A model generated the notes under the pieces. It ran no database searches. It was not told where the DNA came from and saw nothing but the letters and a program-made list of their open reading frames with translations. The translations under genes and the position numbers were made by a program. Shown piece after piece: positions 21,475-37,146 of a DNA stretch of 64,000 bases; position 1 is the first letter of the stretch, and each line of letters starts with the position of its first letter. The stretch spans positions 64,001 to 128,000 of the IMG/VR virus record IMGVR_UViG_3300030330_005091. One strand, 5' to 3'. This stretch comes from a virus. Its lineage: Duplodnaviria > Caudoviricetes.

Positions 21475-21486
21475 GATCTCGGCTCC

Positions 21487-22740
21487 TTAGCAGTCGATTG
21501 CGATAACACGTTCATTGGTTTGGAAGTAGGGGCGAGCAGCGTGGACCTTGGTAGTCATCCACATACGTTGGCACTTGGATGCGATAGGCTTCGGAGCGCA
21601 AAGGTCAGTCAAGACAATGTGACCGTCAAAGTCGCCATCATTGACGAACTTGGTCGGCGCGTTGAAGCAAGTGCCGCCAGTCAACACGCGCTCGGTTTTC
21701 TTGGTTTGACCTTTCTTCCAAGTATATACCTTGTCAACGGCTACCTCGGTGTCGAATGGTACAACCGTGAACTCGGCAATCTCGGCCAGCTTGTTCAACT
21801 CGGAGAAGAACGCGGCGAGCATGCCATCATCAACCGATCCAGACTGGTCGATGGAGATAGCGATCTTGGCTTGACGACGCACGCGCTTGCCAGGGTGGAT
21901 CTTTGGGAACCGCTTGTTCAGGCGTCGAGGGGTCGAACGCTTGTCAGCACGTTGTGAGGTCTTGACGAAGTAACGAAGAACTTTGCGCCAATCAACCTTG
22001 GTCGCAACGCGGTCCATAATATCTTGACGCATACCAGACGAGACTGAGCCCCAGTTACGTGCCTTCTCAGCTTCCTCGGCAGCTTGCTTTACAGCTTCCT
22101 TCAATCGCTCTTTAGCAATCTCTTGAGTGGTGCTATCGCCATCACCGAACTGATCGTGACTGTCAAGTGAATCCATGCCACCGAAGGGATCACCATCGCC
22201 TTCACCGGGCTCGCCTTGACCATCGCCGTTGCTGTCTTGGTTCTCGGCCATATCTTTCAAGGCTTCGAGATACCATTCGTAGGTCTTGTTAGCAGGCAAG
22301 TGAGCAAACGGGCCTTCGCCGGGAAATACACCCTTCATGCCTTGACCATCGGCCATGATTGGGCCGGGGTCAGCTTCACACGGCAGCTTACCAGCCATTT
22401 CAGGCAGGCCGTTGATGGCAAGGTCCATCGCAATGTTGTCGATACGCTTGAGGCCATCGGCAGGCTTGCGGCCAGTCACGTGCTCGAAGATGATGTGATA
22501 GAACTCATGCATGAGGACACCAAGCTGATGCTCAGGCTTGAGAGCACCCATGAACTCAGGGTTATAAAGCAACTCGAACTGAGCGGTGTCGGGGTTGACA
22601 CGGACGCCAGCGGTCGGAAGGCTGGTAGTCGCGGTCTTGTCAATGCGACGAGACAGAGCGGCAAAGAACGGCTCGCGCATAAGCAGGCGAGCAGTGTGCA
22701 TGTTGAGATTGAAGGGCTTGATGGTCTTGTCGTCGGACAT
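21487..22740 (-). CDS. DUF2201-type metallopeptidase + VWA domain protein
   Basis: HEFYH, NIAMDLAIN, IDQSGS MIDAS, GGTCF, LTD; SD before ATG 22740. Confidence 0.85.
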   Translation of the reverse strand: MSDDKTIKPFNLNMHTARLLMREPFFAALSRRIDKTATTSLPTAGVRVNPDTAQFELLYNPEFMGALKPEHQLGVLMHEFYHIIFEHVTGRKPADGLKRIDNIAMDLAINGLPEMAGKLPCEADPGPIMADGQGMKGVFPGEGPFAHLPANKTYEWYLEALKDMAENQDSNGDGQGEPGEGDGDPFGGMDSLDSHDQFGDGDSTTQEIAKERLKEAVKQAAEEAEKARNWGSVSSGMRQDIMDRVATKVDWRKVLRYFVKTSQRADKRSTPRRLNKRFPKIHPGKRVRRQAKIAISIDQSGSVDDGMLAAFFSELNKLAEIAEFTVVPFDTEVAVDKVYTWKKGQTKKTERVLTGGTCFNAPTKFVNDGDFDGHIVLTDLCAPKPIASKCQRMWMTTKVHAARPYFQTNERVIAIDC

Positions 22741-22763
22741 GAATCTCTCCTGATTACCTATAT

Positions 22764-22817
22764 AATATAGCACGGGATGAGTGAAAAAGCAAGGGTTAAG
22801 TTGTCAAGGAAATGTCA
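22764..22817 (-). promoter_or_regulatory. TGACA-box promoter cassette
   Basis: TGACA-N6-TGACA-N9-TTGCTT-N17-TATATT. Confidence 0.85.
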
Positions 22818-23021
22818 GGAGATGGGAACACTAAAGGCAGCGTTGATCACTGTGTCGGCATACCATTGGGCACCGTCAGAACTGCCGTCAAATAGCCTGT
22901 AATGGCGTCTGTTGGCGTCAAGCTGTCCCCACTCCTTCTTGTAACTCTCACGCACTTCAACGACCAGACAGGGGCACTTATCGTGCTCCCTGATTAATAG
23001 GTCGCCTACCTTGAACTTCAA
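22815..23021 (-). CDS. small SH3/KOW-like (VGDL) protein
   Basis: FKVGDLLIR. Confidence 0.6.
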   Translation of the reverse strand: MKFKVGDLLIREHDKCPCLVVEVRESYKKEWGQLDANRRHYRLFDGSSDGAQWYADTVINAAFSVPIS

Positions 23022-24100
23022 GAGTTACCGCCAAGGATCTCAACAAGGTGGTCAGAGACACGGCGACCATCGGACGCCTCGGCCTTGTGGAGTGCCACAA
23101 CATTGTCAATGTTGTCGGTGTCACCGAGAACGGTCCACAACTTCATGGCGACCTCGGAAGGCAGGGTTACGAAGTAGTTGGCGAGGTTAGTGACCTGAGC
23201 CTCGGTCAGAGTCTCAGAGAACACATCAGATGCCTCGAACTTCTCAATCATGGCAGCGTGGTCATTGATACCCCACTGCTCGGTCTTCTCGATTTCACCG
23301 TTGTCAAGAATGTCAGCGATGGTCACTTGCCATTCGTACTTCTCAACGAAATCGCGGAGAGCGACAGCAGCCTCGAACCCGACGAAGGCAGTCGCGAGGT
23401 TGAACAGAAGGTCACGGTCGCCTTCCTCACCGAATACGCCGGTTGAAACTGCGGTATCGTTGAACCGCTTCCAGCTACGACGTGACGGGTAAACCTTGTT
23501 AGGCTCGAAGTCACCGCGATGCTCAAGGTGCATGCGGTTTTGGTTGATGAAGTCCCAGAGGATGCCATCAGTGCGGTCGGTCGCCCACTTCAACCAATCC
23601 TCATCGGAAGGCTCGACATCGAACACGGTCCAGCGGTCCAACTCGGCAGGGTCCATTTCGCCAACTTGGTATTGAGCACCGTGCTCGCCACCGTTGACAG
23701 CGGCAACGATCAGGGTGTCAGGGTGCAGACGCCAGCCGTTCAGCTTGCGGCTGTCGGTCAACTCGAAAAGACCCTGACGGACTTCCACAGTCGCACGATC
23801 AACCTCATCGAGGAACAGCATCACGGGCTGCTCACACGCGGTCACAAGCCAGTCAGGGGCGTTCCACGTGGTAGCCTTGCGGCCATTGATCTCGGTGTCT
23901 GCCGTGTCAGGCAGACCGAGAAGATCACCTTCGGTCATCTGGCTGGCACGACGCTCGACCACTGGAAGGTCGCGAGCAGCGGCGATCTGGTAGACCACCT
24001 CGGACTTGCCGACACCGTGACGACCGCGCAGAAGCACGGGCAGCTTGTTGTCGAGGATGTGAGGAGCGACGGTAGTGAATGTTGCGAAGTCGATAGCCAT
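23018..24100 (-). CDS. MoxR-like AAA+ ATPase
   Basis: GRHGVGKS Walker A, LFLDE Walker B, AAVN sensor, DPAELDRW Arg finger. Confidence 0.9.
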   Translation of the reverse strand: MAIDFATFTTVAPHILDNKLPVLLRGRHGVGKSEVVYQIAAARDLPVVERRASQMTEGDLLGLPDTADTEINGRKATTWNAPDWLVTACEQPVMLFLDEVDRATVEVRQGLFELTDSRKLNGWRLHPDTLIVAAVNGGEHGAQYQVGEMDPAELDRWTVFDVEPSDEDWLKWATDRTDGILWDFINQNRMHLEHRGDFEPNKVYPSRRSWKRFNDTAVSTGVFGEEGDRDLLFNLATAFVGFEAAVALRDFVEKYEWQVTIADILDNGEIEKTEQWGINDHAAMIEKFEASDVFSETLTEAQVTNLANYFVTLPSEVAMKLWTVLGDTDNIDNVVALHKAEASDGRRVSDHLVEILGGNS

Positions 24101-24147
24101 GATATGTTCTCCGTGGGAGGGGTTGTGTTCTTTGTTCTTACTCTATA

Positions 24148-24213
24148 AATATAGCATCATCAGAGTAAAAGGTCAAGGTTTATTTTGTCAAGTAAATGTC
24201 AAGGGATTTGTCA
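24148..24213 (-). promoter_or_regulatory. TGACA-box promoter cassette (three boxes)
   Basis: TGACA x3-N9-TTGACC-N17-TATATT. Confidence 0.85.
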
Positions 24214-24690
24214 AGTCGCTGGCTCAAGGTCGCGGGTCGGATAGGTCGGCCAGCCCCACCGTGGTTGAGCCTCACCCGTCCATGCGATGCGAGCATAGTC
24301 GCCAGCGTTGGCTTCCATCACAAGACCGACGCGACCAGCATAGCCCTGACGCATGGCCCGCTTGTTCTGTTTGCCTCGCACCAGTGAGCCAACGGGATAC
24401 TTAGGCGGCGATGGTAACAGGCTCTCACAGACCTGCGTGATGTTATCACGGAACGAGCCAGCGTGATAGTCGGTCATCAGATCAGAGTGGTCATTGACAC
24501 CGCGAACATGGAAGTTGTGCGCGTCGGCATCCATTTGTTCGTCATCAGGGCCACAGCCGTTGGCCAAGAACGAACCAACATAGCCGTTGTGCTGAAATGA
24601 CCAGCGGTGACCTACGAGTTTTACCTCAATGTCGATGCCTTGTTTCTTGAAGTGTGATTTGACTTTCTTGATTGCGTTGCGAACTTTCAT
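24211..24690 (-). CDS. hypothetical protein with C-terminal SH3/KOW-like domain
   Basis: KYPVGSLV...VGLV...ARIAW...DLE. Confidence 0.7.
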   Translation of the reverse strand: MKVRNAIKKVKSHFKKQGIDIEVKLVGHRWSFQHNGYVGSFLANGCGPDDEQMDADAHNFHVRGVNDHSDLMTDYHAGSFRDNITQVCESLLPSPPKYPVGSLVRGKQNKRAMRQGYAGRVGLVMEANAGDYARIAWTGEAQPRWGWPTYPTRDLEPAT

Positions 24691-24716
24691 GTAGTGCTCT
24701 CCTTGATTACTTATAT

Positions 24717-24770
24717 AATATACCACGTGCGGACGAAGATTGCAAGGGCAATCTTGTCAGGGAAATGTCA
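24717..24770 (-). promoter_or_regulatory. TGACA-box promoter cassette
   Basis: TGACA-N6-TGACA-N9-TTGCAA-N17-TATATT. Confidence 0.85.
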
Positions 24771-25646
24771 AAGGTCCAAACTTCTTCGGGCTTCGATGAA
24801 ATGGTTAGTACCATAGCGGCTCGATTCTTGATTGAACTTCGTAACATTCTCGGCATCGCGGAAGTCCCAATCACGGGCTTTGCCTGATGGATAGTATTGA
24901 TTGAAGTTTAGATCGTCAGCTTGAAGCCATCCAGCGGGCGGTTCAATCTTACCAGCAAGGGTGATCTCATTTTTATGAACCATGCCATTGACACTATGTG
25001 TGCTCTCAGTCGTCACCGCGTAGTGATCGCGAGGCGTAAGCCCTTCATTCAACGTGGCAGCATCTTGAAAACCGTATATACTTTCACTGTTTCGATGGTT
25101 AGGTGCAACCACTTGCCAGTTGAAGCTGGTCAGCATCATAGGACGCTCACGCGATCCCCACTGTTGGTTCTCGCCCCAGTATCCATAGCGCGTCATGATG
25201 GCCATAGAACCAATGCCAGCGCCCACATTGCGCATTTCCTCAAGGCGTTGGGCCCTGACCATCTGAGCGGCCTTGATGAATACGCGCCGATCTTCTTTGA
25301 GGATAGAACACGTGCGCCGAGTGTGACCCCGATCTCCACAATATGAGCATGTAACGGTTCTCATGCGGTCGGCTTTCGCGGCCGCCTTCTGCTCTTTCGT
25401 CATGACAATAGAAGCGCCCGTGTCAGGGTCACAGCGCGTGCGCTTGGTATATTGGCGTGCGTAAGATTCCATTTGCGTGCGGTAACCAGCAGCACCATTG
25501 TCATCGCCGTTAGCTTCGCATATTGCAAGGTTTTGTTTAGCAGTCTTATAGCGCTTGCGAAGGCGCAGATTCAACTCAGGGCAAGAGCGTTTGTTGTGGC
25601 CAGTTTGGTAGCAGTAAGAGCAGCGGACGGTTCCATTATATGACAT
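24768..25646 (-). CDS. protein with two CCHC zinc knuckles
   Basis: CSYCYQTGHNKRSC and CSYCGDRGHTRRTC. Confidence 0.8.
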   Translation of the reverse strand: MSYNGTVRCSYCYQTGHNKRSCPELNLRLRKRYKTAKQNLAICEANGDDNGAAGYRTQMESYARQYTKRTRCDPDTGASIVMTKEQKAAAKADRMRTVTCSYCGDRGHTRRTCSILKEDRRVFIKAAQMVRAQRLEEMRNVGAGIGSMAIMTRYGYWGENQQWGSRERPMMLTSFNWQVVAPNHRNSESIYGFQDAATLNEGLTPRDHYAVTTESTHSVNGMVHKNEITLAGKIEPPAGWLQADDLNFNQYYPSGKARDWDFRDAENVTKFNQESSRYGTNHFIEARRSLDL

Positions 25647-25670
25647 GTAGTTCTCCTTGATTACTTATAT

Positions 25671-25724
25671 AATATAGCACAGGCGAGAGGGGTTCGCAAG
25701 GGGTTCTTTGTCAAGAAGATGTCA
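25671..25724 (-). promoter_or_regulatory. TGACA-box promoter cassette
   Basis: TGACA-N6-TGACA-N9-TTGCGA-N17-TATATT. Confidence 0.85.
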
Positions 25725-25914
25725 AGGCACCATCAACAAGTGAAAGGTGTTGGCTCGCTTCGGTTTCTGGCTGTGTCTTGTCATTCCACAAAACTTTAAC
25801 ATCGCGGTTGCCAGTGTATTTACCAGTCTCGACAATCAGACCAACGTGGACAGATAGACCCTTTTGCCATCGTGTTCGTTGAAAGTAGTATGTCACCAGA
25901 TCACCGACTTGCAT
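25711..25914 (-). CDS. MxVGDLV array member
   Basis: MQVGDLVTY; GGAGGT SD; 14-nt overlap with upstream gene. Confidence 0.75.
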   Translation of the reverse strand: MQVGDLVTYYFQRTRWQKGLSVHVGLIVETGKYTGNRDVKVLWNDKTQPETEASQHLSLVDGALTSS

Positions 25915-26089
25915 TAACGACCTCCACGCGATGAGCCTCAATCCAACTTGTTCGCCCGTCATTCCATGTTACAACAGGATGGTTCGAGCGTTGAGTGTTA
26001 TCAGGCCATCTTGTATCTGTCCAATCAATAATAACCCCAAGCATACCGCTTTCTGACCAAAGGTTTCTCACCAGATCACCGACTTTCAT
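25901..26089 (-). CDS. MxVGDLV array member
   Basis: MKVGDLV...VEVVNASR. Confidence 0.8.
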   Translation of the reverse strand: MKVGDLVRNLWSESGMLGVIIDWTDTRWPDNTQRSNHPVVTWNDGRTSWIEAHRVEVVNASR

Positions 26090-26113
26090 GTGATTTCTCC
26101 TTTCTATACATAT

Positions 26114-26167
26114 AATATAGCATCGGCTGGGGCGGTTGTCAATGGCTCAAATGTCAGGGAAATGTTA
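26114..26167 (-). promoter_or_regulatory. TGACA-box promoter cassette
   Basis: TAACA-N6-TGACA-N9-TTGACA-N17-TATATT. Confidence 0.85.
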
Positions 26168-26521
26168 AGCCTTGCCTTTGTGGTTTGCATTTCCAGCGTT
26201 GTAAGCCACGTGGCGCATTGGTCGGTTTCCAATAGTTGTGTTAGAACCTGACAAATGACAAGACTTGCCCTTGTGGAAACCAGTCACAGCCTTCCAAGCC
26301 TTAGAATACGACTCGCGATCTTCGTTGGACTCGAACGCAACGATTGAGATACCAGCGGCCTTACCATCACCAGCGGACAGCCCCAGATACTTAACAGCAG
26401 TCTCGGTGCCAAGTTCCTCAACGCAGTCAGGACACTCGTTGATCTTACCGCCGGCTTGCTTCTTGGCGGTCGAGTCAAGATCAAAAGAGATTCCACAATG
26501 TTTACATTCTTTGGTGTTCAT
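26165..26521 (-). CDS. zinc-ribbon protein
   Basis: CKHC...CPDC. Confidence 0.7.
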   Translation of the reverse strand: MNTKECKHCGISFDLDSTAKKQAGGKINECPDCVEELGTETAVKYLGLSAGDGKAAGISIVAFESNEDRESYSKAWKAVTGFHKGKSCHLSGSNTTIGNRPMRHVAYNAGNANHKGKA

Positions 26522-26527
26522 TTCTAC

Positions 26528-26884
26528 CTACCAGTCAATGGGGTCGTTAGCAACAGGGTTTGCAGTGCCGCGCATTAGTCTCTGTTCCACAGTCTCGGCG
26601 TCCTCGACTTGAAACTCACCGAAGCGCACGCCGCGGCGCTCTGCCGCACGGCTGGATGCCTTCTGCATCTCGCGAGCACGGATGCCAGCGTCAACGAAAG
26701 CAGCCTCGGCAATCTCGGTAGGCTCCCACTCATCAACCACGTCACCTGATTGTTCCATCAAATCATGGCAAAGTTCAATAGCAGGCTGACCATCGGCATC
26801 CGTGCGTGTGCCAGCCTCGTGAAGAAGATCGAGAATCAAATCAAGTTCGCGCTGGGTAACTCGAATGTTTAGAATGTCAGACAT
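26528..26884 (-). CDS. hypothetical protein
   Basis: SD AGGAG behind cassette. Confidence 0.7.
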   Translation of the reverse strand: MSDILNIRVTQRELDLILDLLHEAGTRTDADGQPAIELCHDLMEQSGDVVDEWEPTEIAEAAFVDAGIRAREMQKASSRAAERRGVRFGEFQVEDAETVEQRLMRGTANPVANDPIDW

Positions 26885-26906
26885 GTTTGCTCCTTGTTAT
26901 GTATAT

Positions 26907-26960
26907 AATATAGCCCATAACTTGGCTGTTGTCAATGGTTAAAATGTAAAGAGAATGTCA
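26907..26960 (-). promoter_or_regulatory. TGACA-box promoter cassette
   Basis: TGACA-N6-TTACA-N9-TTGACA-N17-TATATT. Confidence 0.8.
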
Positions 26961-27101
26961 AGCCCGCTATACATGAATCGCTGTTCTCGCCGCGTCTTTC
27001 ACTCGCCAGCCACCTTTCAACTCCCCAAAGGGTATGGGTTCATGGGTGACATTGAACCCGTTACTCTGTATAGTTTATAGATAGCCGACTTGACATTCTC
27101 T
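26950..27101 (-). repeat. 152-bp non-coding element bounded by 21-bp inverted repeats (candidate ncRNA)
   Basis: agagaatgtcaagcccgctat (26950-26970) vs revcomp of 27081-27101, 19/21; internal GGGTTCA/TGAACCC hairpin. Confidence 0.6.
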
Positions 27102-27108
27102 AGTAAAA

Positions 27109-27483
27109 TCAATAGGTTGCGGACCTTTCGATGTGAATATCAAAGCCCCAGCCTTCAACTTCGTTGTCGTCCATTTCCTCACCGATGCGAACGAAGCGGT
27201 AATATTCATCTGCGTTGACTTCCTTGCCGTCAACTTGAATCTGTTCAGACTGACACCACTCGATGAAGTCTTGAATAGCAGCAACTTCTTCAAAGCTGTC
27301 GTACCACTTGATGTGACTCCAGCGAAACAAGAACGCGCCCTCGATGTCGCAGTAGTCCTTGATCATTGTGTCAGCTTCCCCGAAACACATCTTGCGAGCC
27401 TCGGGAGACTTTGCCATAGTGACCATAAACTGTGGCATAACTTCAGGACCAACAGCCAAAATAACTTCTGAACGATAACCCAT
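27109..27483 (-). CDS. conserved phage hypothetical protein
   Basis: MGYRSEV...KWY...RFVRIGEE..D motif. Confidence 0.75.
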   Translation of the reverse strand: MGYRSEVILAVGPEVMPQFMVTMAKSPEARKMCFGEADTMIKDYCDIEGAFLFRWSHIKWYDSFEEVAAIQDFIEWCQSEQIQVDGKEVNADEYYRFVRIGEEMDDNEVEGWGFDIHIERSATY

Positions 27484-27485
27484 CT

Positions 27486-27677
27486 CTACGCCTCCGCTGC
27501 GTTGTGGAGTGCTGCGGCTGCGATGATGAGCGCATCAGTCAACTCGGGGTTCTTCTCTTGTGCAATCTGTCCAGTGATCATCATCATTGTGATTGATACC
27601 TCAAGGTTTGAGCGGTTCTCTTCCATCGGCGTCAGCTTCGGGAAAGTGTTGATAAGGTTGATGGGCTTCAAGTTCAT
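27486..27677 (-). CDS. hypothetical protein
   Basis: SD AGGAGA behind cassette. Confidence 0.65.
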   Translation of the reverse strand: MNLKPINLINTFPKLTPMEENRSNLEVSITMMMITGQIAQEKNPELTDALIIAAAALHNAAEA

Positions 27678-27698
27678 TTCGTTTCTCCTTATGCTTAT

Positions 27699-27752
27699 AA
27701 TATAGCATCGTGGGAGGGGTTCGTCAAGGATTAAGTTGTCAAGAGAATGTCA
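27699..27752 (-). promoter_or_regulatory. TGACA-box promoter cassette
   Basis: TGACA-N6-TGACA-N9-TTGACG-N17-TATATT. Confidence 0.85.
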
Positions 27753-27935
27753 GGTGATTTGTTTGAGGTAGCGGCTGCTCATAACTTCGCGCTTGCCACT
27801 ACCAACCCACTCGACAATCCACCACTCTCCAAGGCGGGATGACTTCGGGACTGCGATGACGATGCCGACAGGACGCCGACCCTCGCCATAAGTTCTTTCT
27901 ACCAACATTCCGGGTGTAAGTTGAGTCATGGTCAC
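27750..27935 (-). CDS. small SH3/KOW-like protein
   Basis: LTPGMLV...GIVI...WIVEW...YL. Confidence 0.7.
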   Translation of the reverse strand: MTMTQLTPGMLVERTYGEGRRPVGIVIAVPKSSRLGEWWIVEWVGSGKREVMSSRYLKQIT

Positions 27936-28264
27936 GCTGCGATCTCCATATGCATCATATCAAGTTGATAGCCATAGTTATTACTCCATGTAAGTTCTGA
28001 CCAGCTTTGAAAGATCGACCACAACTCGTCGCGCTTCATATCTCTCATTTTGGCTTGATCCCATTCATATGGTTCAGCCTGTTCGCCGTCAGTCTCGCGA
28101 TATGCGTTGTGGTTGTTCATAGCACTCAAGGCGGTTTCCTCATCCTCGACACCAAGAAACTCAAGCACATCAGCGATACACGCCAGCGCACAACCCTTTT
28201 CAGTCAGATGAACTGAAGAAAACAAATCGCCTTCGTGGATACCTTGCATCACCCAAACTTTCAT
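27932..28264 (-). CDS. hypothetical protein
   Basis: ATGA-coupled, GAGGT SD. Confidence 0.65.
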   Translation of the reverse strand: MKVWVMQGIHEGDLFSSVHLTEKGCALACIADVLEFLGVEDEETALSAMNNHNAYRETDGEQAEPYEWDQAKMRDMKRDELWSIFQSWSELTWSNNYGYQLDMMHMEIAA

Positions 28265-28410
28265 GCTATCACCTCAAAGTGAGTTTTATCAGCCCACATC
28301 TTATAGTTTGTTTTTTGGTTAATGATTAACACGCTCTCTGCAATCTCATCAAGAGCGAGCCACACTGAATCGTTAAACCTGTTTCTAAGCAAACACCCTA
28401 CCTCAATCAT
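28261..28410 (-). CDS. small SH3-like protein (49 aa, not in ORF track)
   Basis: MIEVGCLL...HFEVIA; coupled on both sides. Confidence 0.6.
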   Translation of the reverse strand: MIEVGCLLRNRFNDSVWLALDEIAESVLIINQKTNYKMWADKTHFEVIA

Positions 28411-28757
28411 TATGCACTCTCCCGCTTTGCACGCGAATCTTCAATCATCTTCTCAATCCAGTGCCCACCAAACTCTGCTGCATACTCGTTGCGGAGCACC
28501 AGCAGCTTCTCACCGTCTTTAGTTTCGTTCTTCAGCTTGTAGCCGGGGATCACAAACTCCGTGCCGATAGGGGCACCCAGGAAGCACTCACACACAGCGT
28601 AGGGCACCGACTTCCATCGGCTTTTAGTCTCGCCAGTTGCCTTGTCCTTCCAGCTACGACGGAAGCGCCGAAACTGCATATCGACAACGCGGGCTTGAAT
28701 GTTCGCGCCCGATGCGGATGGGATGATTACGAGGTCGTCTTTTGTGAGATAGGCCAT
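28410..28757 (-). CDS. hypothetical protein (SH3-like N-terminus)
   Basis: LTKDDLVII; AGGAGG SD. Confidence 0.7.
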   Translation of the reverse strand: MAYLTKDDLVIIPSASGANIQARVVDMQFRRFRRSWKDKATGETKSRWKSVPYAVCECFLGAPIGTEFVIPGYKLKNETKDGEKLLVLRNEYAAEFGGHWIEKMIEDSRAKRESA

Positions 28758-28782
28758 TGTGGTCCTCCTTGATTACCTATAT

Positions 28783-28836
28783 AATATATCACAGGCAGAT
28801 GTAAAGATCAATAGAAAAGTTGTCAAGAGGTTGTCA
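28783..28836 (-). promoter_or_regulatory. TGACA-box promoter cassette
   Basis: TGACA-N6-TGACA-N9-TTGATC-N17-TATATT. Confidence 0.85.
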
Positions 28837-29002
28837 AGACAGTTAAACTGTTCTCAAAACACCACTCTTTGTGACCGGGACCGAAAAGCGACTCGCCCTG
28901 TGTAGTCCAAAGAACGTGTGCGCCAATGTCGCCCCGTACCTCAAGCACGATACCGATCTGTTCGGTAAGAAAATGTTTAACAATATCACCTACTTGCGGC
29001 AC
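28823..29002 (-). CDS. MxVGDLV array member (59 aa, not in ORF track)
   Basis: GTG start MPQVGDIVKHF...HVLW...LTTS; GGAGGT SD. Confidence 0.7.
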   Translation of the reverse strand: MPQVGDIVKHFLTEQIGIVLEVRGDIGAHVLWTTQGESLFGPGHKEWCFENSLTVLTTS

Positions 29003-29171
29003 TTATCACCTCCATATAATGTGTTGCCACCTCATGTACCTTTGTCTGGCCATGAGCGGTCCACGCTATACGTGCCCAGCCTCTCGACGGACCCAAATCT
29101 CTCAGATCCAGTATAATACCAGAACCCATCAGTGTTCCATACTTGTGTTTTACAATGTCACCGACTTGCAT
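28986..29171 (-). CDS. MxVGDLV array member
   Basis: MQVGDIV...MEVISAASR. Confidence 0.8.
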   Translation of the reverse strand: MQVGDIVKHKYGTLMGSGIILDLRDLGPSRGWARIAWTAHGQTKVHEVATHYMEVISAASR

Positions 29172-29328
29172 TAAGTACCTCCAAGAATCGACTACTCTCG
29201 ATCTTAGGCTTGGGCTCATTTGTCCACATCACCCATACGTCATCGTCTTTGGCCCAGCGCCTTTTGCAAGGCCCCATCACAAGGCCAACCGATCCTCTCC
29301 AGCTTACTAATGTTCCTGTTTTAAGCAT
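29158..29328 (-). CDS. MxVGDLV array member (head of array)
   Basis: MLKTGTLV...VWVMW...LEVLNASR. Confidence 0.75.
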   Translation of the reverse strand: MLKTGTLVSWRGSVGLVMGPCKRRWAKDDDVWVMWTNEPKPKIESSRFLEVLNASR

Positions 29329-29349
29329 ATCTCTCCCTTTCATATATAT

Positions 29350-29403
29350 AATATAACACCTGAGAGCATGAAAGTCAATGCTTCAAATGTCAAGGAAATG
29401 TCA
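29350..29403 (-). promoter_or_regulatory. TGACA-box promoter cassette
   Basis: TGACA-N6-TGACA-N9-TTGACT-N17-TATATT. Confidence 0.85.
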
Positions 29404-29781
29404 AGGCTTTTCTGACAGGATAGAATACTTGAGCGTCGGTGAAATGTTTGAGTATTCAAACTTCTCGAACTCATTTTCTTTGCGGTCCTTGAAGGTATGG
29501 CCAACGATGAACATCTTGCCCACAAGATCACTTTCAGGGTCGGTAACAACCCAGAAAGTGTGCTTCATACCTCGCTCACGATGAGCGCACACAACGCCCG
29601 TACCCTTCGGTATGACGCCAGCATGCCAGAACTGCGATACGTTGCCGTCTGCATCGCGCCAGTAGTGCGGGATACCTGTGGCGTCTTTGATGGTATCAAA
29701 CATGCTGAGATTGATGAACGGCACCTCTGCATCCCGTTTGAAGAACCCGACTGTGTGTCGCCTGACCTTGGCTTGCTTCAT
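29401..29781 (-). CDS. hypothetical protein
   Basis: ATGA-coupled; stop in cassette box. Confidence 0.65.
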   Translation of the reverse strand: MKQAKVRRHTVGFFKRDAEVPFINLSMFDTIKDATGIPHYWRDADGNVSQFWHAGVIPKGTGVVCAHRERGMKHTFWVVTDPESDLVGKMFIVGHTFKDRKENEFEKFEYSNISPTLKYSILSEKP

Positions 29782-29984
29782 TGTTGCACTCTTGGCGAGA
29801 ACATTTCAATCTCCTGCTTTGAATACCAGCGTTCAGCATCGCCAGCAAGCTGACACATCAGACGCATCCGCATCTCATCCGTCCGCGACCAATCGCCCGA
29901 GATTGGAACAATCTCTGTACGAAGACCGACAACGATTTTCTTTTCATCTGTCCGTAAAACCTTAACAATATCACCCACTTGCAC
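29778..29984 (-). CDS. MxVGDLV array member
   Basis: MQVGDIVKV. Confidence 0.75.
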   Translation of the reverse strand: MQVGDIVKVLRTDEKKIVVGLRTEIVPISGDWSRTDEMRMRLMCQLAGDAERWYSKQEIEMFSPRVQQ

Positions 29985-30126
29985 TAATCACCTCCAGCGA
30001 TGTCCCATAGTTGTCGGCATCCTCAACGATGCCATCATCGAACCACTTAATCAATGTCTCATAGGCATTGACGCATATCACGATTGCCAAATGCCCGTTG
30101 CTGCTTACCAGATCACCGACTTGCAT
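29971..30126 (-). CDS. MxVGDLV array member (51 aa, not in ORF track)
   Basis: MQVGDLVSS...IKW...LEVISASG. Confidence 0.75.
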   Translation of the reverse strand: MQVGDLVSSNGHLAIVICVNAYETLIKWFDDGIVEDADNYGTSLEVISASG

Positions 30127-30277
30127 TGATCACCTCCATGTGTTGTTCGTGCATAAGAGAGATTCCGCCATGCCAGAAGATGTGCCAAAAGCCATCACCA
30201 TGCACAGGGGTTGGCTCGACCAAGATACATGGTCCGGGCGTTGCAAACGTGCAGTACATTAGGTCACCCGCTTGCAT
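30113..30277 (-). CDS. MxVGDLV array member (54 aa, not in ORF track)
   Basis: MQAGDLMY...WHIFW...MEVINASR. Confidence 0.75.
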   Translation of the reverse strand: MQAGDLMYCTFATPGPCILVEPTPVHGDGFWHIFWHGGISLMHEQHMEVINASR

Positions 30278-30446
30278 TTAAGACCTCCATATCACATTCA
30301 GATGCGATTGTTCGAGCGCAAGTGTGATCGCGCAGCGCGACAACCCACGCAGCGTTGCCAAGCGCGTGACCCCACGGCTTGACAATCACGCCAATCTTGC
30401 CGCCAGCATGCTTTGTGTCCACTCTAACCAAATCACCGACTTTCAC
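30264..30446 (-). CDS. MxVGDLV array member
   Basis: MKVGDLV...MEVLNASG. Confidence 0.8.
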   Translation of the reverse strand: MKVGDLVRVDTKHAGGKIGVIVKPWGHALGNAAWVVALRDHTCARTIASECDMEVLNASG

Positions 30447-30615
30447 TGATTACCTCCAGCCATTTCTTCGGTTCCCATGATGCTTCTGCATCTTCAATCC
30501 AATATACTTCAACACGACCAAGCCCATGCTTTTCCCCGTCTGGTTTCTCTCTCAAAACAATACCTGTGGCTGGCTCAATCGACCCAGGCATTATTACCAA
30601 ATCACCGACTTGCAC
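30433..30615 (-). CDS. MxVGDLV array member
   Basis: MQVGDLV...VEVYW...LEVISESR. Confidence 0.8.
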   Translation of the reverse strand: MQVGDLVIMPGSIEPATGIVLREKPDGEKHGLGRVEVYWIEDAEASWEPKKWLEVISESR

Positions 30616-30787
30616 TGATCACCTCCAAATGTTGTGGTTGAAAGCAACACACGGCCCCAGTGTGGGACAACATGACGCCCCACAAATCAGATACCTTAAA
30701 GTATTCGACAACGATACCTGTCGCAAATGACCCGTTAGCGCGTCGGCTATGGACTGTCAGACATTTAACTAAGTCACCGACTTTCAT
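30602..30787 (-). CDS. MxVGDLV array member
   Basis: MKVGDLV...LEVISASR. Confidence 0.8.
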   Translation of the reverse strand: MKVGDLVKCLTVHSRRANGSFATGIVVEYFKVSDLWGVMLSHTGAVCCFQPQHLEVISASR

Positions 30788-30947
30788 TGACTACCTTCAA
30801 ATAGCATACTGAATAGTTACCCACATCGCCATCGTTCCATGTGACTTCAACTTCTTCCATATCGCCAATCTGTTCAGGATCTACGCATGTGATAATACCC
30901 AACGCTGGCAATCCTCCCCGCATCTTAACTAAATCACCGACTTTCAT
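30774..30947 (-). CDS. MxVGDLV array member, head of array (57 aa, not in ORF track)
   Basis: MKVGDLVKM...VEVTW...LKVVNESR. Confidence 0.8.
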   Translation of the reverse strand: MKVGDLVKMRGGLPALGIITCVDPEQIGDMEEVEVTWNDGDVGNYSVCYLKVVNESR

Positions 30948-30969
30948 ATTTCTCCCTGATTACTTATAT

Positions 30970-31023
30970 AATATAGCATCATCGAACACTGCCGTCAATG
31001 GTTTGTTTGTCAAGGAAATGTCA
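30970..31023 (-). promoter_or_regulatory. TGACA-box promoter cassette
   Basis: TGACA-N6-TGACA-N9-TTGACG-N17-TATATT. Confidence 0.85.
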
Positions 31024-31212
31024 AGCCTCGCTGACAACTTCGATTTTATCCACCGAAGGGCTAATAATATGCACTCTTGCTCTCTCAAAGCACCACATTT
31101 GCCAAACACAGTCCTGACCACAATCAGGCGTTTGAAACACAATACCATGGAATGGACTTGTCCAGTCCTCTTCTTCACGGTATCTAACTTTAATCAAATC
31201 ACCGAGCTTCAT
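31021..31212 (-). CDS. MxVGDLV array member
   Basis: MKLGDLI...IEVVSEA. Confidence 0.75.
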   Translation of the reverse strand: MKLGDLIKVRYREEEDWTSPFHGIVFQTPDCGQDCVWQMWCFERARVHIISPSVDKIEVVSEA

Positions 31213-31405
31213 CAATCGGCTTCAGGTCAGTCAACGGCACACCGCGTAATGTGCCCTTGAACAATATACGGGCGAAGGGTTCAGGCTCAATATCTTTGAA
31301 GCTGACAGCCTTCCCGCGCTCTGCGGTGCGCCACATCTTACTTTCATAAAGTTCTGTAATGAGGGTCGGATGGCCATTCCACATTACCAAATCATTTACT
31401 TTCAT
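31199..31405 (-). CDS. MxVGDLV array member
   Basis: MKVNDLV...LKPIDEAR. Confidence 0.7.
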   Translation of the reverse strand: MKVNDLVMWNGHPTLITELYESKMWRTAERGKAVSFKDIEPEPFARILFKGTLRGVPLTDLKPIDEAR

Positions 31406-31530
31406 TAAAAACTCCAGATCGCATAGGCAATCATACCCAATGCTGATAAGATTCCAATCCAACTGACGATGAGAACATTTTTTTCGGCTGCCTCAATATC
31501 ATCTTTGAATGTTTTTTTATTGTGTTTCAT
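31405..31530 (-). CDS. small membrane peptide (41 aa, not in ORF track)
   Basis: MKHNKK...VSWIGILSALGMIAYAIWSF; coupled both sides. Confidence 0.5.
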   Translation of the reverse strand: MKHNKKTFKDDIEAAEKNVLIVSWIGILSALGMIAYAIWSF

Positions 31531-31753
31531 ATTCCACCTTTGCTGTTTTCACATAAAATACAACTTTGTCTCCATTTTTAACATGTTTAAGTTGTTTTTT
31601 ATTTAGCTTGACCCAAGTAAACGCGCCCGGTGCGTTCGTAATCTCAACCAAGACCATTCTATCAAAATACATTTGATCGTCTACAACTGTTCCGTTTAGT
31701 TTTGCTCTGTTAGCAGAACACCCGACTAAAAATAGTAAAGTTAAAAACTTCAT
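31517..31753 (-). CDS. small lipoprotein
   Basis: MKFLTLLFLVGC lipobox. Confidence 0.65.
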   Translation of the reverse strand: MKFLTLLFLVGCSANRAKLNGTVVDDQMYFDRMVLVEITNAPGAFTWVKLNKKQLKHVKNGDKVVFYVKTAKVEYETQ

Positions 31754-32049
31754 TTTACTCCCTCAATGTGGCGACATTTGCGCCGATAACTAAACCCAGG
31801 ACAGGTGCAAGAATATGCACCGTCAGATAGCTTGACTGTATAAATATTTCCTTTGCTACCCTCAACCTTCCATACCTTTTCTCCGGCAGGACGCTTGATT
31901 TCACGGGGCTTATAGGTCATGTATTTGTGCAGTTCATCAAAAGTTGTTTCTGGTGGGACTTCAACCCACGCAGAACCAGCGATTGCATAACAGATTCCAT
32001 CAGCATTTCTGAAAAGTGCCGGTGGTATTGATACTTCGATAGGTTTCAC
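31750..32049 (-). CDS. SWIM zinc-finger protein
   Basis: GSKGNIYTV...CTCPGF...CRHI. Confidence 0.85.
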   Translation of the reverse strand: MKPIEVSIPPALFRNADGICYAIAGSAWVEVPPETTFDELHKYMTYKPREIKRPAGEKVWKVEGSKGNIYTVKLSDGAYSCTCPGFSYRRKCRHIEGVK

Positions 32050-32121
32050 ATCAACCCCATTGTTACAATCATGCCGATCAGGAACCCAAGACCGACCATT
32101 ACTACATACTCAGTGACCATT

Positions 32122-32244
32122 TTATGCTCCACATGTAAAAAAATGAATACCAAAGAAAAGCAGTGCGCCCCAACACACGGCATCCACCGCGACCAAAGCC
32201 ATCGCAAATCTATTGCGTCCAATCATCATAGCTGTTTTACCCAT
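32122..32244 (-). CDS. small membrane peptide (40 aa), followed by a 24-aa TM peptide at 32046-32120
   Basis: AGGAGA SD directly behind cassette; hydrophobic. Confidence 0.5.
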   Translation of the reverse strand: MGKTAMMIGRNRFAMALVAVDAVCWGALLFFGIHFFTCGA

Positions 32245-32267
32245 TAGTGTTCTCCTGTCATACATAT

Positions 32268-32321
32268 AATATAGCATCGTCAATATCATTAGTCAACCTT
32301 TCAAATGTGAAGAAGATGTCA
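32268..32321 (-). promoter_or_regulatory. TGACA-box promoter cassette
   Basis: TGACA-N6-TCACA-N9-TTGACT-N17-TATATT. Confidence 0.8.
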
Positions 32322-32514
32322 AGTAGATTATATCATCAAGTCTTGGGTTTACCAAAAACTTCCCGCCGTCACACCAAACAATCCAAATAGTATCTTTCCA
32401 GCCGCCTGCACGCCTATCGTCATTGACATAAGCATCCAACACAATGCAAGGGTTTGACCAGTCATCTTCTCCAAAAGATTTTGGCTTGAATGAGATTAGA
32501 TCACCGACTCGCAC
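32293..32514 (-). CDS. MxVGDLV array member
   Basis: GTG start MRVGDLISF...WIVW. Confidence 0.75.
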   Translation of the reverse strand: MRVGDLISFKPKSFGEDDWSNPCIVLDAYVNDDRRAGGWKDTIWIVWCDGGKFLVNPRLDDIIYLTSSSHLKG

Positions 32515-32695
32515 TAACGACCTCAAGAACTTGCGTATCAAACCACACCGTTTCTCCGCCGGCGAATAAAACTTGTGCAGACTTTGTTTTGTGACCGGTC
32601 TTTGAAATCTGTAATACAAGCCCGTAGGATTTGGTGTGATAATCCATGCTATCGTTCAAAACACTTTCCCAACTTACCAAATCACCTACTTTCAC
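32501..32695 (-). CDS. MxVGDLV array member
   Basis: MKVGDLV...LEVVSASR. Confidence 0.8.
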   Translation of the reverse strand: MKVGDLVSWESVLNDSMDYHTKSYGLVLQISKTGHKTKSAQVLFAGGETVWFDTQVLEVVSASR

Positions 32696-32885
32696 TAATC
32701 ACTCTTATTTCATCCTGATACATAATAGAACCACCATCTTCACTCAGCCATATAGGGTGTCTCCACAGAACTTTGACGCCTGCGGGCTCTTGGGGCTGGC
32801 CCCACATATTAAGATCAGTTTCCAGCACAATCCCAATACCGTGTTCAGGCTCATTAATGTTTAGCACCAAATCACCCACCTTCAT
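32682..32885 (-). CDS. MxVGDLV array member
   Basis: MKVGDLV...VKVLW...IRVISESR. Confidence 0.8.
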   Translation of the reverse strand: MKVGDLVLNINEPEHGIGIVLETDLNMWGQPQEPAGVKVLWRHPIWLSEDGGSIMYQDEIRVISESR

Positions 32886-33048
32886 TGATTCTCTCCAGCT
32901 TTTTTGCTTGCTCATGTGTATAATGCCACTGGCCATTTATATTATCCCACTTTACAATCACATAGTCAAGTGTTATTTTGACAACAGATCCTACGGGGTT
33001 TTCCACTCTAAGCACAGACGCTCTTGTAACTCTGTCACCTACGTTCAC
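32872..33048 (-). CDS. MxVGDLV array member (58 aa, not in ORF track)
   Basis: MNVGDRV...VIVKW...LERINEGG. Confidence 0.75.
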   Translation of the reverse strand: MNVGDRVTRASVLRVENPVGSVVKITLDYVIVKWDNINGQWHYTHEQAKKLERINEGG

Positions 33049-33211
33049 TAATGACCTCCAATAAATCTACAGCCTCCCAAGAGTTATGTTGCTCGCCGTT
33101 CCATTTTACCATGACTTCTACACCTTTTTTTAGTTTCGGTCCCTGTGTCGCAGTTACAATACCATACCATTTGTGATACCTCACAAGGTCGCCTTTGTTT
33201 ATTTTTTTCAT
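33035..33211 (-). CDS. MxVGDLV array member (58 aa, not in ORF track)
   Basis: MKKINKGDLV...VMVKW...LEVISERR. Confidence 0.75.
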   Translation of the reverse strand: MKKINKGDLVRYHKWYGIVTATQGPKLKKGVEVMVKWNGEQHNSWEAVDLLEVISERR

Positions 33212-33432
33212 TCAACATGCTCCATAAACATTTCATGAAATCTTAACACAACACCGTTTGTCATGAGAACCTTCCACTGTTTTGGTTGTCTCTTGTCTTT
33301 GTCTTTGCCCCAATATTGAATCGTGATATTTCTTTCTATAAGGTGTCCCATTCTTGACGTAGGCATACGCTCATCATGTGTCCCTTCTTTGATGCGAACA
33401 AAGTCACCGCTATTAAATATCTTCTTCATCAT
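33208..33432 (-). CDS. small SH3/KOW-like protein
   Basis: FNSGDFVRI...WKVL. Confidence 0.7.
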   Translation of the reverse strand: MMKKIFNSGDFVRIKEGTHDERMPTSRMGHLIERNITIQYWGKDKDKRQPKQWKVLMTNGVVLRFHEMFMEHVE

Positions 33433-35021: not shown

Positions 35022-35097
35022 TGGTGCGCCTAGCGGGATTTGAACCCGCGACACCTGCTTTATAAGAACAACGCTCTAACCCCTGAGCTATAGGCGC
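35022..35097 (-). tRNA. tRNA-Ile(UAU)
   Basis: cloverleaf GCGCCTA.../TAGGCGC ACCA, loop CT-TAT-AA, TTCAAAT. Confidence 0.85.
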
Positions 35098-35169
35098 GTG
35101 GGCTGGGGTTAACTTGTGGCGTCCGGTCGATTGACTCTAGTTTATGTCCGAGTAAGCTGTCTCCTAAAG

Positions 35170-35245
35170 TGGCACATCTGGTAGGATTCGAACCTACGAC
35201 TCTCGGCTTAGAAGGCCGATACTCTATCCACTGAGTTACAGATGC
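35170..35245 (-). tRNA. tRNA-Arg(UCU)
   Basis: cloverleaf, TCGGC-CT-TCT-AA-GCCGA, GCCA end. Confidence 0.92.
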
Positions 35246-35255
35246 ATTGATTGGT

Positions 35256-35537
35256 CTATGTCATTTCAAAAACATTGTCATATACATCAATCGGCTCGTT
35301 GGTGCTTTTGCGTGTTGATTCTGACTTTGCATTATCATTGACAAAATTATCGTAAAAATAAACTGGGTGGTCACCAGGCACCAAGGCTATCAAGCACATG
35401 TTATTGCTACCGCCCATTTTTGCGGCAGCTAACCACGCCGCTTTTCTATCTATAACTCCAGTATATCTTGAGCAACTTAGCTGTCCTTGTGGGCCTTGAA
35501 AAATGGCAGTATAAATCATCTCATTGTTCTCCATCAT
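35256..35537 (-). CDS. hypothetical protein
   Basis: ORF between tRNAs. Confidence 0.6.
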   Translation of the reverse strand: MMENNEMIYTAIFQGPQGQLSCSRYTGVIDRKAAWLAAAKMGGSNNMCLIALVPGDHPVYFYDNFVNDNAKSESTRKSTNEPIDVYDNVFEMT

Positions 35538-35772
35538 TTGTTTTGCTATCTCCTTGAGGATCTTTACATATAATAACAGGTACAGATTCTTCTGTCAACT
35601 TTAAAATGTAGAAAGTGTCGCCTTCTTTTACTACACACGGAAAAGCATGCAAAGGCAGCACAGCATGCCCAGCTTGTTGGGTCGCTGGGTTCATGTTAAT
35701 TTCAACCGTGGCGAAGAAGTCATCTCTCGAATCCACTGTTCCAACCAGTAGAAATGTAGTTAGTAGTTTCAT
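35521..35772 (-). CDS. hypothetical protein
   Basis: ORF between tRNAs. Confidence 0.6.
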   Translation of the reverse strand: MKLLTTFLLVGTVDSRDDFFATVEINMNPATQQAGHAVLPLHAFPCVVKEGDTFYILKLTEESVPVIICKDPQGDSKTNDGEQ

Positions 35773-35789
35773 ATTATTCTCTTATTAGA

Positions 35790-35866
35790 TGGTGGGCCCT
35801 CTGGGGCTCGAACCCAGGACTATCCCGTTATGAGCGGGGTGCTCTGACCAACTGAACTAAAGGCCC
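35790..35866 (-). tRNA. tRNA with CAU anticodon, probably Ile2 (lysidine) rather than Met
   Basis: GGGCCTT acceptor stem with C4-G69/C5-G68, loop CT-CAT-AA, ACCA. Confidence 0.85.
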
Positions 35867-35872
35867 GTGTTT

Positions 35873-36184
35873 TTAAAATTTGTTAGTTACTTGGAACACC
35901 GTATGATCTGCTCCCTTCTGTTCTGACTTCTCAATCTTTTTGTTGTTTTCTGGCCCCAATGGATCTTCAACCGGAGTATGGATACATGCTGCCATAAGAT
36001 CCTCTTTGTTAGTCCACCTAACAAGAACAATTCTGTCGTCTGTTTTTTCAATTCGACGTGTTCCATATTGCATGTATGGATATTTTGTTTTATATACTTC
36101 ACATGCTTGCTCAATCTCTTCTGTTGAGCCGGATGCCGTATAACATGTCTTGAAACAATCCATTGGTACTTCATAGTCTTGCAT
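35873..36184 (-). CDS. hypothetical protein
   Basis: AGGAGA SD. Confidence 0.6.
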   Translation of the reverse strand: MQDYEVPMDCFKTCYTASGSTEEIEQACEVYKTKYPYMQYGTRRIEKTDDRIVLVRWTNKEDLMAACIHTPVEDPLGPENNKKIEKSEQKGADHTVFQVTNKF

Positions 36185-36203
36185 ATTATCTATCTCCTTA
36201 AAG

Positions 36204-36278
36204 TGGTGGGTCGTCTGGGATTCGAACCCAGAACCTATTGGTTAAAAGCCAAGTGCTCTGCCGTTGAGCTAACGACCC
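36204..36278 (-). tRNA. tRNA-Lys(UUU)
   Basis: GGGTCGT/ACGACCC stem, CT-TTT-AA, ACCA. Confidence 0.92.
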
Positions 36279-36287
36279 GATTCTTAA

Positions 36288-36494
36288 TTAAAACTTGTGG
36301 AACTTCTCTTTTGGGTATCGGGATGGCTTGCAAAGACCTTCTTCAATCAGATGCATCGCGTGCCTACCAAACCAACCCTGCAATCTCCAAGCCAAGCCAG
36401 TGTCAATAAGATGCTGCCACGCTTCATAGTATTGTTCTGGTTTCTCAGGCTCTGTATAGCCTTCTGCAATATTAATAGCTTCCACATCAGACAT
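36288..36494 (-). CDS. conserved phage hypothetical protein
   Basis: AWQHLIDTGLAWRLQGWFGR.A..LIE.G. Confidence 0.75.
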   Translation of the reverse strand: MSDVEAINIAEGYTEPEKPEQYYEAWQHLIDTGLAWRLQGWFGRHAMHLIEEGLCKPSRYPKEKFHKF

Positions 36495-36696: not shown

Positions 36697-36717
36697 TGTT
36701 TTTTACTCTCCTTAAAA

Positions 36718-36804
36718 TGGTGCTTGAGGCGGGAATCGAACCCGCACGCCCAGATGGGCGACAGATTTTAAGTCTGTTGTGTCTACCTATTCCACCACTC
36801 AAGC
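36718..36804 (-). tRNA. tRNA-Leu(UAA)
   Basis: long variable arm, ACAGA-CT-TAA-AA-TCTGT, ACCA. Confidence 0.92.
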
Positions 36805-37134: not shown

Positions 37135-37146
37135 ATAATAACTATA

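Follow-up and report, generated by a model that had tools for sequence, protein, structure and literature searches.

Introduction

Lambdoid phages carry conserved boundary ('linker') sequences at gene borders, and relaxed homologous recombination feeds the mosaicism of phage genomes. In T4-type phages, modular shuffling is driven by promoter-early stem-loop (PeSL) cassettes (PMC2839356, PMC4122927), recombination needs homology patches of <50 base pairs (bp) (PMC2839356), and the authors who described the cassettes drew, as we do here, a comparison with integrons (PMC2839356, PMC4122927). In this work we studied a stretch of 64,000 nucleotides (nt), hereafter the window, which comprises bases 64001-128000 of a complete IMG/VR virus record from the T4 superfamily (IMGVR_UViG_3300030330_005091; 195,690 bp). 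Within the window, very small genes (mini-genes) of one protein family stand head to tail and are joined by a repeated junction of ~33 nt that is itself coding sequence. The comparisons reported below indicate that, among related phages, single mini-genes have been deleted, inserted, replaced and reordered at this junction.

When compared to PeSL cassettes, the arrays are alike in several ways: short conserved repeats in hyperplastic T4-superfamily regions flank small variable open reading frames (ORFs); the repeat ends in a Shine-Dalgarno (SD) sequence and a start codon; indel and replacement crossovers between close relatives fall inside the repeat; no integrase takes part and the general phage recombination machinery is invoked; and the window also has PeSL-like promoter boxes between operons. 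In contrast to PeSL, the present junction has neither a promoter nor a terminator stem-loop, lies wholly within coding sequence that is read in two frames, and joins promoterless, polycistronic units of ~170 bp whose cargo is one protein family, whereas PeSL mini-circles measure 400-1400 bp and carry unrelated ORFans. With integrons the arrays have in common promoterless single-gene cassettes behind an upstream promoter that are gained, lost and reordered at a repeated boundary, but no IntI or other site-specific recombinase and no attC hairpin was found here, the boundary is itself coding, and homology appears to be what drives exchange. The lambdoid linkers, too, are short conserved gene-border sequences that act as crossover points and yield mosaics of intact genes; they join unrelated genes and are sporadic, whereas the junction described here occurs in ~20 copies per genome, in strict register, within one family and with a fixed dual-coding overlap of 14 nt. 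Although outside the definitions of both PeSL cassettes and integrons, the junction functions in the manner of either. PeSL-mediated shuffling is the nearest known system, and the present arrays are its gene-level analogue placed in coding sequence.

Results

A coding junction joins mini-genes in a fixed register

The region contains ~20 ORFs of 51-74 amino acids (aa) that begin with M-[K/Q]-V-G-D-L-V and, for the most part, end with h-L-E-V-I-S-[A/E]-S-R. We discarded a comparison of this C-terminal motif between genes with and without a follower, since the latter class contained some that precede family members missed by detection. We verified 14 junctions between them, all on the minus strand, where the upstream gene stops at 25901, 28986, 29158, 29971, 30113, 30264, 30433, 30602, 30774, 31199, 32501, 32682, 32872 or 33035. 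As the initial annotation had stated, neighbouring genes overlap by 14 nt at 13 of these junctions and by 17 nt at one (28986/29002), the latter because the downstream gene has one extra Pro codon. At all 14, the start and SD of the downstream gene are contained in the upstream gene, whose stop is at or after that start.

The junction (consensus TTGGAGGTGATCAGTGAAAGTCGGTGATTTGGT) does three jobs: read as gene n, it gives the last strand and tail of that protein (L-E-V-I-S-E/A-S-R); it supplies a long SD (GGAGGTGAT, a 9-nt complement of the 3' end of 16S rRNA); and, read as gene n+1, it gives the start and first strand (M-K/Q-V-G-D-L-V). The motif GGAGGT-N5-RTG is present at the junctions, with the downstream SD and start codon at the 3' end of the repeat, and the SD GGAGGT(GAT) is the other reading of E-V-(I) from the upstream last strand. 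Similarly, M-K/Q-V-G read in the other frame gives the upstream tail S/N-E/A-S-R: the downstream RTG-MAA-GTC-GGT-GAY is read by the upstream gene as A[R]T-G[M]A-AGT-CGG-TGA, so that its stop is the TGA inside Gly-Asp. Since GGT-GAY holds this TGA in the upstream frame, the overlap is fixed at 14 nt. Scored against a 32-nt consensus, the junctions have 0-6 mismatches each (12 in the shifted 17-nt junction). A 31-nt version of the consensus gave 10 matches at ≤3 mismatches, as opposed to 0 in 100 shuffles, and the core motif AAGTCGGTGA is confined to family start sites across the whole 195,690-bp genome.

Among 906 family members in 127 loci, the overlap was 14 nt in 366 cases, 4 nt in 34 and 11 nt in six, and at least 110 of the retrieved loci have the junction. 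Were a gene to arrive in the third frame, its stop would be the TGA of RTGA and the overlap 4 nt; the 366:34 ratio of 14-nt to 4-nt overlaps therefore argues that the register is inherited with the unit and is no accident of frame. Unit length ranges from 133 to 259 nt (median 169) and is 1 mod 3 without exception, as follows from the fixed overlap, and an in-register crossover between two junctions consequently keeps all frames.

Both long runs that had been reported initially are real, one of seven genes (29778-30947), which is the longest among all loci examined, and one of five (32293-33211), or six if the divergent member at 33208-33432, joined by a 4-nt ATGA overlap, is included. Each run of 2-7 genes has one predicted promoter box upstream and none inside. 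The sigma-70-like box (TTGACx-17-TATATT) was present only in intergenic cassettes and at none of the 14 junctions, and of the terminator-like sites (5 vs 6.4 expected) none is at a junction. From this anatomy we infer that the genes of a run are translationally coupled; among the sequencing runs listed as containing the sequence, none was of RNA.

Units are rearranged at the junction among related phages

The junction pattern was found in at least 119 IMG/VR stretches, many of them from contigs of ~185-203 kb. Three close relatives (G001, G002 and G005) were identified through a neighbouring 126-aa gene, that is, independently of the junction. Many units and flanking genes are common to the window and these three at 70-92% nt identity, as gene-sized blocks in scrambled order, and array content and order differ in every relative examined; identical content and order, which the initial annotation had set in advance as one part of what would speak against it, was not seen. 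As an example, the homologue of the mini-gene at 30433-30615 is the last gene of its operon in G001, beside the promoter of the 25646 homologue, and in G002 it is directly upstream of the homologue of 28986-29171. The latter has 92% nt identity between the window and G002 when compared to ~75% for backbone genes, suggesting a recent transfer of this unit.

Close relatives differ by single units. Two contigs that are otherwise 99.5-100% identical (L014 and L016) differ by one 176-bp unit located between perfect 20-bp repeats (ATGAAAGTCGGTGATTTGGT), and this unit is the homologue of window gene 25901-26089. A second pair (L114 and L119) also differs by one unit, of ~175 bp, and the junction gene that survives in L119 has a chimeric N-terminus. 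In a third pair (L051 and L063), one unit body is fully replaced, with both sides and the junctions identical; L051 has, 680 bp away, another unit to which the incoming one is 92.8% identical. L051 and L114 have four units in common at 92-97% identity, in a different order and with extra units between them. The repeats that flank single-unit differences in near-identical contigs are 20-40 bp long.

To the same effect, 107 of the 247 alignment ends inside arrays (≥90% identity) fall within 25 nt of a family start (random placement: 31.5 ± 4.8, maximum 47 in 200 trials). At 50%, 70% and 85% identity, respectively, 49 of 55, 25 of 30 and 11 of 15 unit groups have at least two different downstream partners; the overlap is 14 nt throughout these partner changes, and reciprocal orders (A-B and B-A) occur. 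Each unit keeps its own half of the junction, the upstream half staying with the upstream unit and the downstream half with the downstream one, which places the crossovers around the start codon and the N-terminal motif. These contig comparisons show that, among related phages, the deletion, insertion, replacement and reordering of single units take place at the junction, as the initial annotation had supposed.

The junction is conserved beyond what coding and the SD appear to demand

We then compared codon usage in the junction and in the unit bodies, leaving out all members matched by the retrieval pattern. Of the 383 that remained, 268 (70%) have GTC as codon 3, as opposed to 21% of Val codons in the bodies (P = 4e-95) and 5% at Val7, and GTA at codon 3 would give the same residues in both frames. 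The bias is also present in first-in-operon members, which have no upstream gene (GTC: 62%; GGT: 83%, when compared to 30% GGT in the bodies); where an upstream gene overlaps, GGT reaches 97%. None of seven K-V-G-D genes scattered outside the arrays of the same genome uses GTC. Judging by codon choice, the junction is conserved at the nucleotide level beyond coding and SD needs, the comparison that the initial annotation had suggested for its synonymous sites.

A hairpin over the start codon can be drawn in which the spacer (A/G)(A/G)TCA pairs with TGA(T/C)T, for example at 30427-30458 and at 30768-30799, where the arms are AGTCA and TGACT. Folding z-scores of the junctions ranged from -1.3 to +1.3, none significant, and across 326 junctions the fractions of paired positions equalled the expectation for independent columns (pair -4,+15: odds ratio 0.92, P = 0.88; pair -5,+16: weakly associated, P = 0.01). 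Moreover, GTT at codon 3 would give -5.9 kcal/mol and GTC -5.7 kcal/mol; GTT would serve equally well and is the commonest Val codon in the bodies, yet it is rare at codon 3. We therefore rejected the hairpin as the cause of the bias. Homologues of RegA or RegB were not found in a search run without a positive control, and a translational operator is possible.

Mini-genes encode a hyperdiverse family with a predicted SH3-like fold

The unit bodies had been described as all different, and within the window they are only 14-40% identical as protein. Their ratio of nonsynonymous to synonymous substitution rates (dN/dS) is 0.20 (87 orthologous pairs in 58 groups); by this measure the bodies are under purifying selection and the mini-genes encode real proteins. 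The family comprises 2,415 clusters at 50% identity. For ten members there was neither a Pfam match above cut-off nor a meaningful PHROG match, and 677 metagenomic homologues have neither a Pfam domain nor a name.

The AlphaFold2 model of the member at 30433-30615 (48-sequence alignment; predicted local distance difference test, pLDDT, 87) has strands at residues 6-8, 17-23, 34-39, 44-49 and 54-57. Its best PDB matches in Foldseek were PWWP, Tudor, KOW and chromo domains (template-modelling score, TM, 0.6-0.77; E ≥ 0.018). On the basis of the model, the mini-proteins are predicted to be five-strand SH3/Tudor-like barrels without a specific relative, in keeping with the SH3-like fold assigned initially. 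The strands are conserved, and the loops vary in length and sequence. The best BFVD matches were unnamed proteins of uncultured viruses and the T-even protein Gp30.5 (phage TuIa; TM 0.72). Gp30.5 resembles the mini-proteins in being a small early protein with an SH3-like fold and no assigned function from a T4-type hyperplastic region, but T-even small early proteins have no detectable sequence relationship to the mini-genes, and we know of no tandem arrays or shared junction among them. The ESM Atlas returned only unnamed viral clusters, the nearest named proteins, DsrB and DfrB, being weak leads that we set aside. The 'effector' role that had been ascribed to the mini-proteins is a guess.

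Single SH3-like genes are also scattered elsewhere, at 16634-17130, 22815-23015 and 36874-37524 of the window and at 54902-55135 and 59654-59875 of the genome. They have an internal K/R-V-G-D motif, but neither the GTC-GGT codons nor a canonical junction. In a protein of 358 aa from elsewhere (P0121) there are five fused copies of a similar FKVGDRV...W domain, so the domain also exists as in-frame tandem repeats; a multi-repeat match in a further protein (P0124) proved to be low-complexity sequence.

Organization of the arrays and of the surrounding region

All genes of the region are on the minus strand, and eight sigma-70-like boxes within 25671..32296 (25699-25671, 26142-26114, 26935-26907, 27727-27699, 28811-28783, 29378-29350, 30998-30970 and 32296-32268) divide it into short operons. 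The 62-aa mini-gene at 25901..26089 (OG12) is the first after its promoter box, and its 176-bp homologue, present in L014, is absent from L016. It is joined at J1 (25895..25926; 14-nt overlap, 0 mismatches) to the last gene of the operon, 25711..25914 (67 aa; MQVGDLV; OG9), which has 83% nt identity to a unit in G005. A divergent family member of 61 aa (27750..27935) stands without a canonical junction. Another operon begins with 29158..29343 (61 aa; OG2), which has a divergent N-terminus and belongs to a group with seven different downstream partners elsewhere. Junction J3 (29152..29183; 14-nt overlap) connects it to 28986..29171 (61 aa; OG16), whose 92% identical counterpart in G002 has a different upstream neighbour, and J2 (28983..29014; the 17-nt overlap with the extra Pro codon) connects the latter to 28823..29002 (59 aa; OG4), a gene with a GTG start and the N-terminus MPQVGDIV.

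The seven-gene run starts with 30774..30947 (57 aa; OG11) and proceeds through J9 (30768..30799) to 30602..30787 (61 aa; OG31), through J8 (30596..30627; 0 mismatches) to the modelled member at 30433..30615 (60 aa), and through J7 (30427..30458; 0 mismatches) to 30264..30446 (60 aa). Thereafter come J6 (30258..30289) and the gene at 30113..30277 (54 aa), J5 (30107..30138; 0 mismatches) and 29971..30126 (51 aa; OG1, a group with five different downstream partners), and finally J4 (29965..29996) and the last gene, 29778..29984 (68 aa). Upstream of this run, 31199..31405 (68 aa; MKVNDLV) is joined to 31021..31212 (63 aa) by the degenerate J10 (31193..31224; 6 mismatches). In the AT-richer run, the divergent 74-aa member at 33208..33432 leads into 33035..33211 (58 aa; MKKINKGDLV), followed by J14 (33029..33060), 32872..33048 (58 aa), J13 (32866..32897), 32682..32885 (67 aa), J12 (32676..32707), 32501..32695 (64 aa; OG3), J11 (32495..32526) and the last gene, 32293..32514 (73 aa; OG23).

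Between these two arrays lies an insert from outside the family (31405-32289). Besides small hydrophobic ORFs, it contains a membrane peptide of 41 aa, a lipoprotein-like gene of 78 aa and a SWIM zinc-finger protein of 99 aa. The second of these is, in G001, joined directly to a family gene by the same 14-nt overlap. Below the arrays, a 292-aa protein with two CCHC-type zinc knuckles (24768-25646), a short zinc-finger motif being its sole Pfam match, has homologues that come after different mini-gene operons in G001 and G005.

Between operons, ~11 copies of the promoter cassette occur on the minus strand at 22760-32296 of the window, each with a GCTATATTATAT -10 box, a TTGACx -35 box and upstream TGACA boxes. 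Some Logan contigs contain cassette-to-cassette joints, for example from 28798 to 29388, which skips the 3-gene operon; such joints would amount to PeSL-like shuffling at the level of operons, but their sides measure just ~30 nt and similarity among the repeats may account for them. For this reason we did not count Logan contig joints or loose ends at junctions and promoter boxes as evidence. PeSL-like boxes and the coding junction together make up two tiers, one at the operon level and one at the gene level.

A GC-rich island at 20000-31400 (46-57% GC vs 39% for the genome) spans the promoter-box operons and most of the mini-gene arrays. The second array (32293-33432) is AT-richer, at ~41% GC, suggesting that its units are of a different origin. 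Adjoining the arrays is a cluster of five tRNAs (35022-36804; Ile-TAT, Arg-TCT, Met, Lys-TTT and Leu-TAA) that are 81-96% identical in relatives. For the region of the arrays itself, the GC content is 48-57%. An early-type, GC-rich region of short promoter-box operons beside tRNAs is the layout of a T4-type hyperplastic region. For many of the neighbouring early genes, function is unassigned. A MoxR-type AAA ATPase (23018-24100) stands beside a DUF2201 metallopeptidase/VWA protein (21487-22773); this CobS/CobT-like pair is very GC-rich and keeps 72-75% nt identity in relatives. A GroEL-type chaperonin is encoded at 50548-52125 (PHROG 5725, E = 6e-139).

The genome has a Gp23-type capsid gene, and the capsid of the nearest isolates (Flavobacterium phage immuto and Microcystis phage Mel-JY01) is only ~50% identical. 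Neither megablast of the region nor tblastn of one mini-gene member gave a match among GenBank phages. The initial annotation had called the arrays integrase-free, and this holds for the recognized families: across the complete genome there was no match to the tyrosine recombinase family PF00589 (controls positive) or to the serine recombinase family PF00239, and a RecA/UvsX-type recombinase gene is present.

Discussion

In our reading, an uncultured marine myovirus of the T4 superfamily has its early, hyperplastic part here. Short operons behind their own sigma-70-like boxes carry head-to-tail arrays of one hyperdiverse SH3-like family, and we propose that the units are exchanged at the shared coding junction by general homologous recombination. 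Taken as a whole, we consider this reading probable (roughly 70%). Exchange would occur by ordinary homologous recombination, or by slippage or template switching, on homology patches of 20-40 bp; the general UvsX-type machinery would carry it out in concatemers or between co-infecting phages, with no site-specific enzyme. The genes of a run would be translated in a coupled way from one early transcript, and the proteins may be variable binders that act early in infection. Units that keep the canonical junction would spread, which would explain its conservation at the nucleotide level, and selection, whether acting on cassette spread, on translation or on the two together, presumably keeps the junction.

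Several points weigh against this proposal. Most loci were retrieved by the junction pattern itself, so that their counts carry a sampling bias (corrected for in the codon test), and all comparison sequences are metagenome assemblies. Junctions within one genome are as similar to each other as junctions from different genomes (0.655 vs 0.653), implying that conservation is family-wide and not due to local gene conversion; concerted evolution inside a genome, which we had considered, left no sign. GTC stabilises the drawable hairpin by ~1 kcal/mol relative to GTA and GTG, and the nucleotide conservation could serve translation, in which case recombination would be a by-product. Coupling, early expression and protein function are predictions.

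If the junction were conserved for translation, either through obligatory coupling by a start-hiding hairpin that the upstream ribosome opens as it terminates at the TGA, or as the operator of a translational repressor, shuffling would be incidental, a side effect of ~20 copies of a 33-nt sequence. We regard this as a real possibility, though not a likely one. Several junctions of the window do permit an 8-bp interrupted hairpin ((A/G)ATCA with TGAT(C/T), and the start TGA with TCG), GTC and GGT fold at lower energy than most synonymous codons, and the SD has its established match to 16S rRNA; set against these are the insignificant folding scores, the absence of covariation apart from the one weak pair, the rarity of a GTT that would be as stabilising as GTC, and the lack of a RegA or RegB homologue in the search without a positive control. 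The evidence for shuffling, in any case, stays standing under this explanation. A further suggestion, that the junction is a mobility module, i.e. a recombination site in coding sequence kept as cassettes spread between co-infecting phages, would turn the arrays into a library of SH3-scaffold binders that is reshuffled combinatorially across the population and deployed early in infection against variable host targets (defence or takeover proteins), an integrase-free counterpart of the integron in lytic phages; we think it unlikely.

A static set of paralogues from an old tandem duplication, in which protein constraint on strands 1 and 5 and the SD would alone keep a junction that has no role in rearrangement, could account for the L-x-V-h last strand of terminal genes without a downstream partner, for G-D-L-V as a structural strand, and for the TGA that comes automatically from GGT-GAY. 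This explanation, very unlikely in our judgment, is already contradicted by the data: arrays differ in content and order in every relative examined, the junction bounds single-unit indels and swaps in contigs of 98-100% identity, both A-then-B and B-then-A occur, synonymous GTC and GGT persist without an upstream gene, and 14-nt and 4-nt overlaps stand at 366:34, where chance of frame would give ~1:1. It would revive only if the contig differences were assembly errors. Such errors, with strains joined at 20-40-bp repeats, are a concern in that every comparison sequence is a metagenome contig and Logan unitigs of four runs break or branch at junctions. Yet the pattern recurs in many independent samples and in genomes 20-30% apart in backbone, unit groups at ≥85% identity have different neighbours in complete ~190-kb contigs, and the repeats are shorter than the final k-mers that are usual in metagenome assembly, so that we give artefacts scarcely any credence. 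We find it just as improbable that a dedicated site-specific system, a true integron-like machine in which an unrecognised phage nuclease or recombinase binds or cuts AAAGTCGGTGAT, is at work. A conservation that exceeds coding needs, a motif restricted to family starts and the many neighbouring early genes without assigned function would suit such an enzyme; no tyrosine or serine recombinase was found in the genome, the junction has no attC-like hairpin, and the crossover points vary along shared identical stretches of 20-40 bp, which is what exchange driven by homology should give.

With exchange at the junction by general recombination as the preferred reading, the interpretation given by the initial annotation is largely borne out as far as the evolutionary mechanism is concerned. 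Its description of the arrays as an undescribed system holds in that literature searches returned no description of the junction or of the mini-gene family, and has to be qualified in that PeSL cassettes are a close published precedent (PMC2839356, PMC4122927). The idea of a dedicated system was not upheld, as nothing observed points to one in preference to general short-homology recombination.

Our observations mean that modular shuffling in T4-like phages can act on single genes of ~170 bp, by way of a repeat in which the end of one protein, a ribosome-binding site and the start of another protein coincide. In this manner, lytic marine phages could keep and exchange thousands of tiny orphan genes without a mobile-element enzyme. 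Selection on recombination or mobility, and not on protein or translation, may lie behind the synonymous-site conservation seen in the junction. The mini-genes themselves constitute a large unnamed family (~2,400 clusters) which, with its conserved SH3-like scaffold and variable loops, is a candidate source of binders for host takeover or counter-defence.

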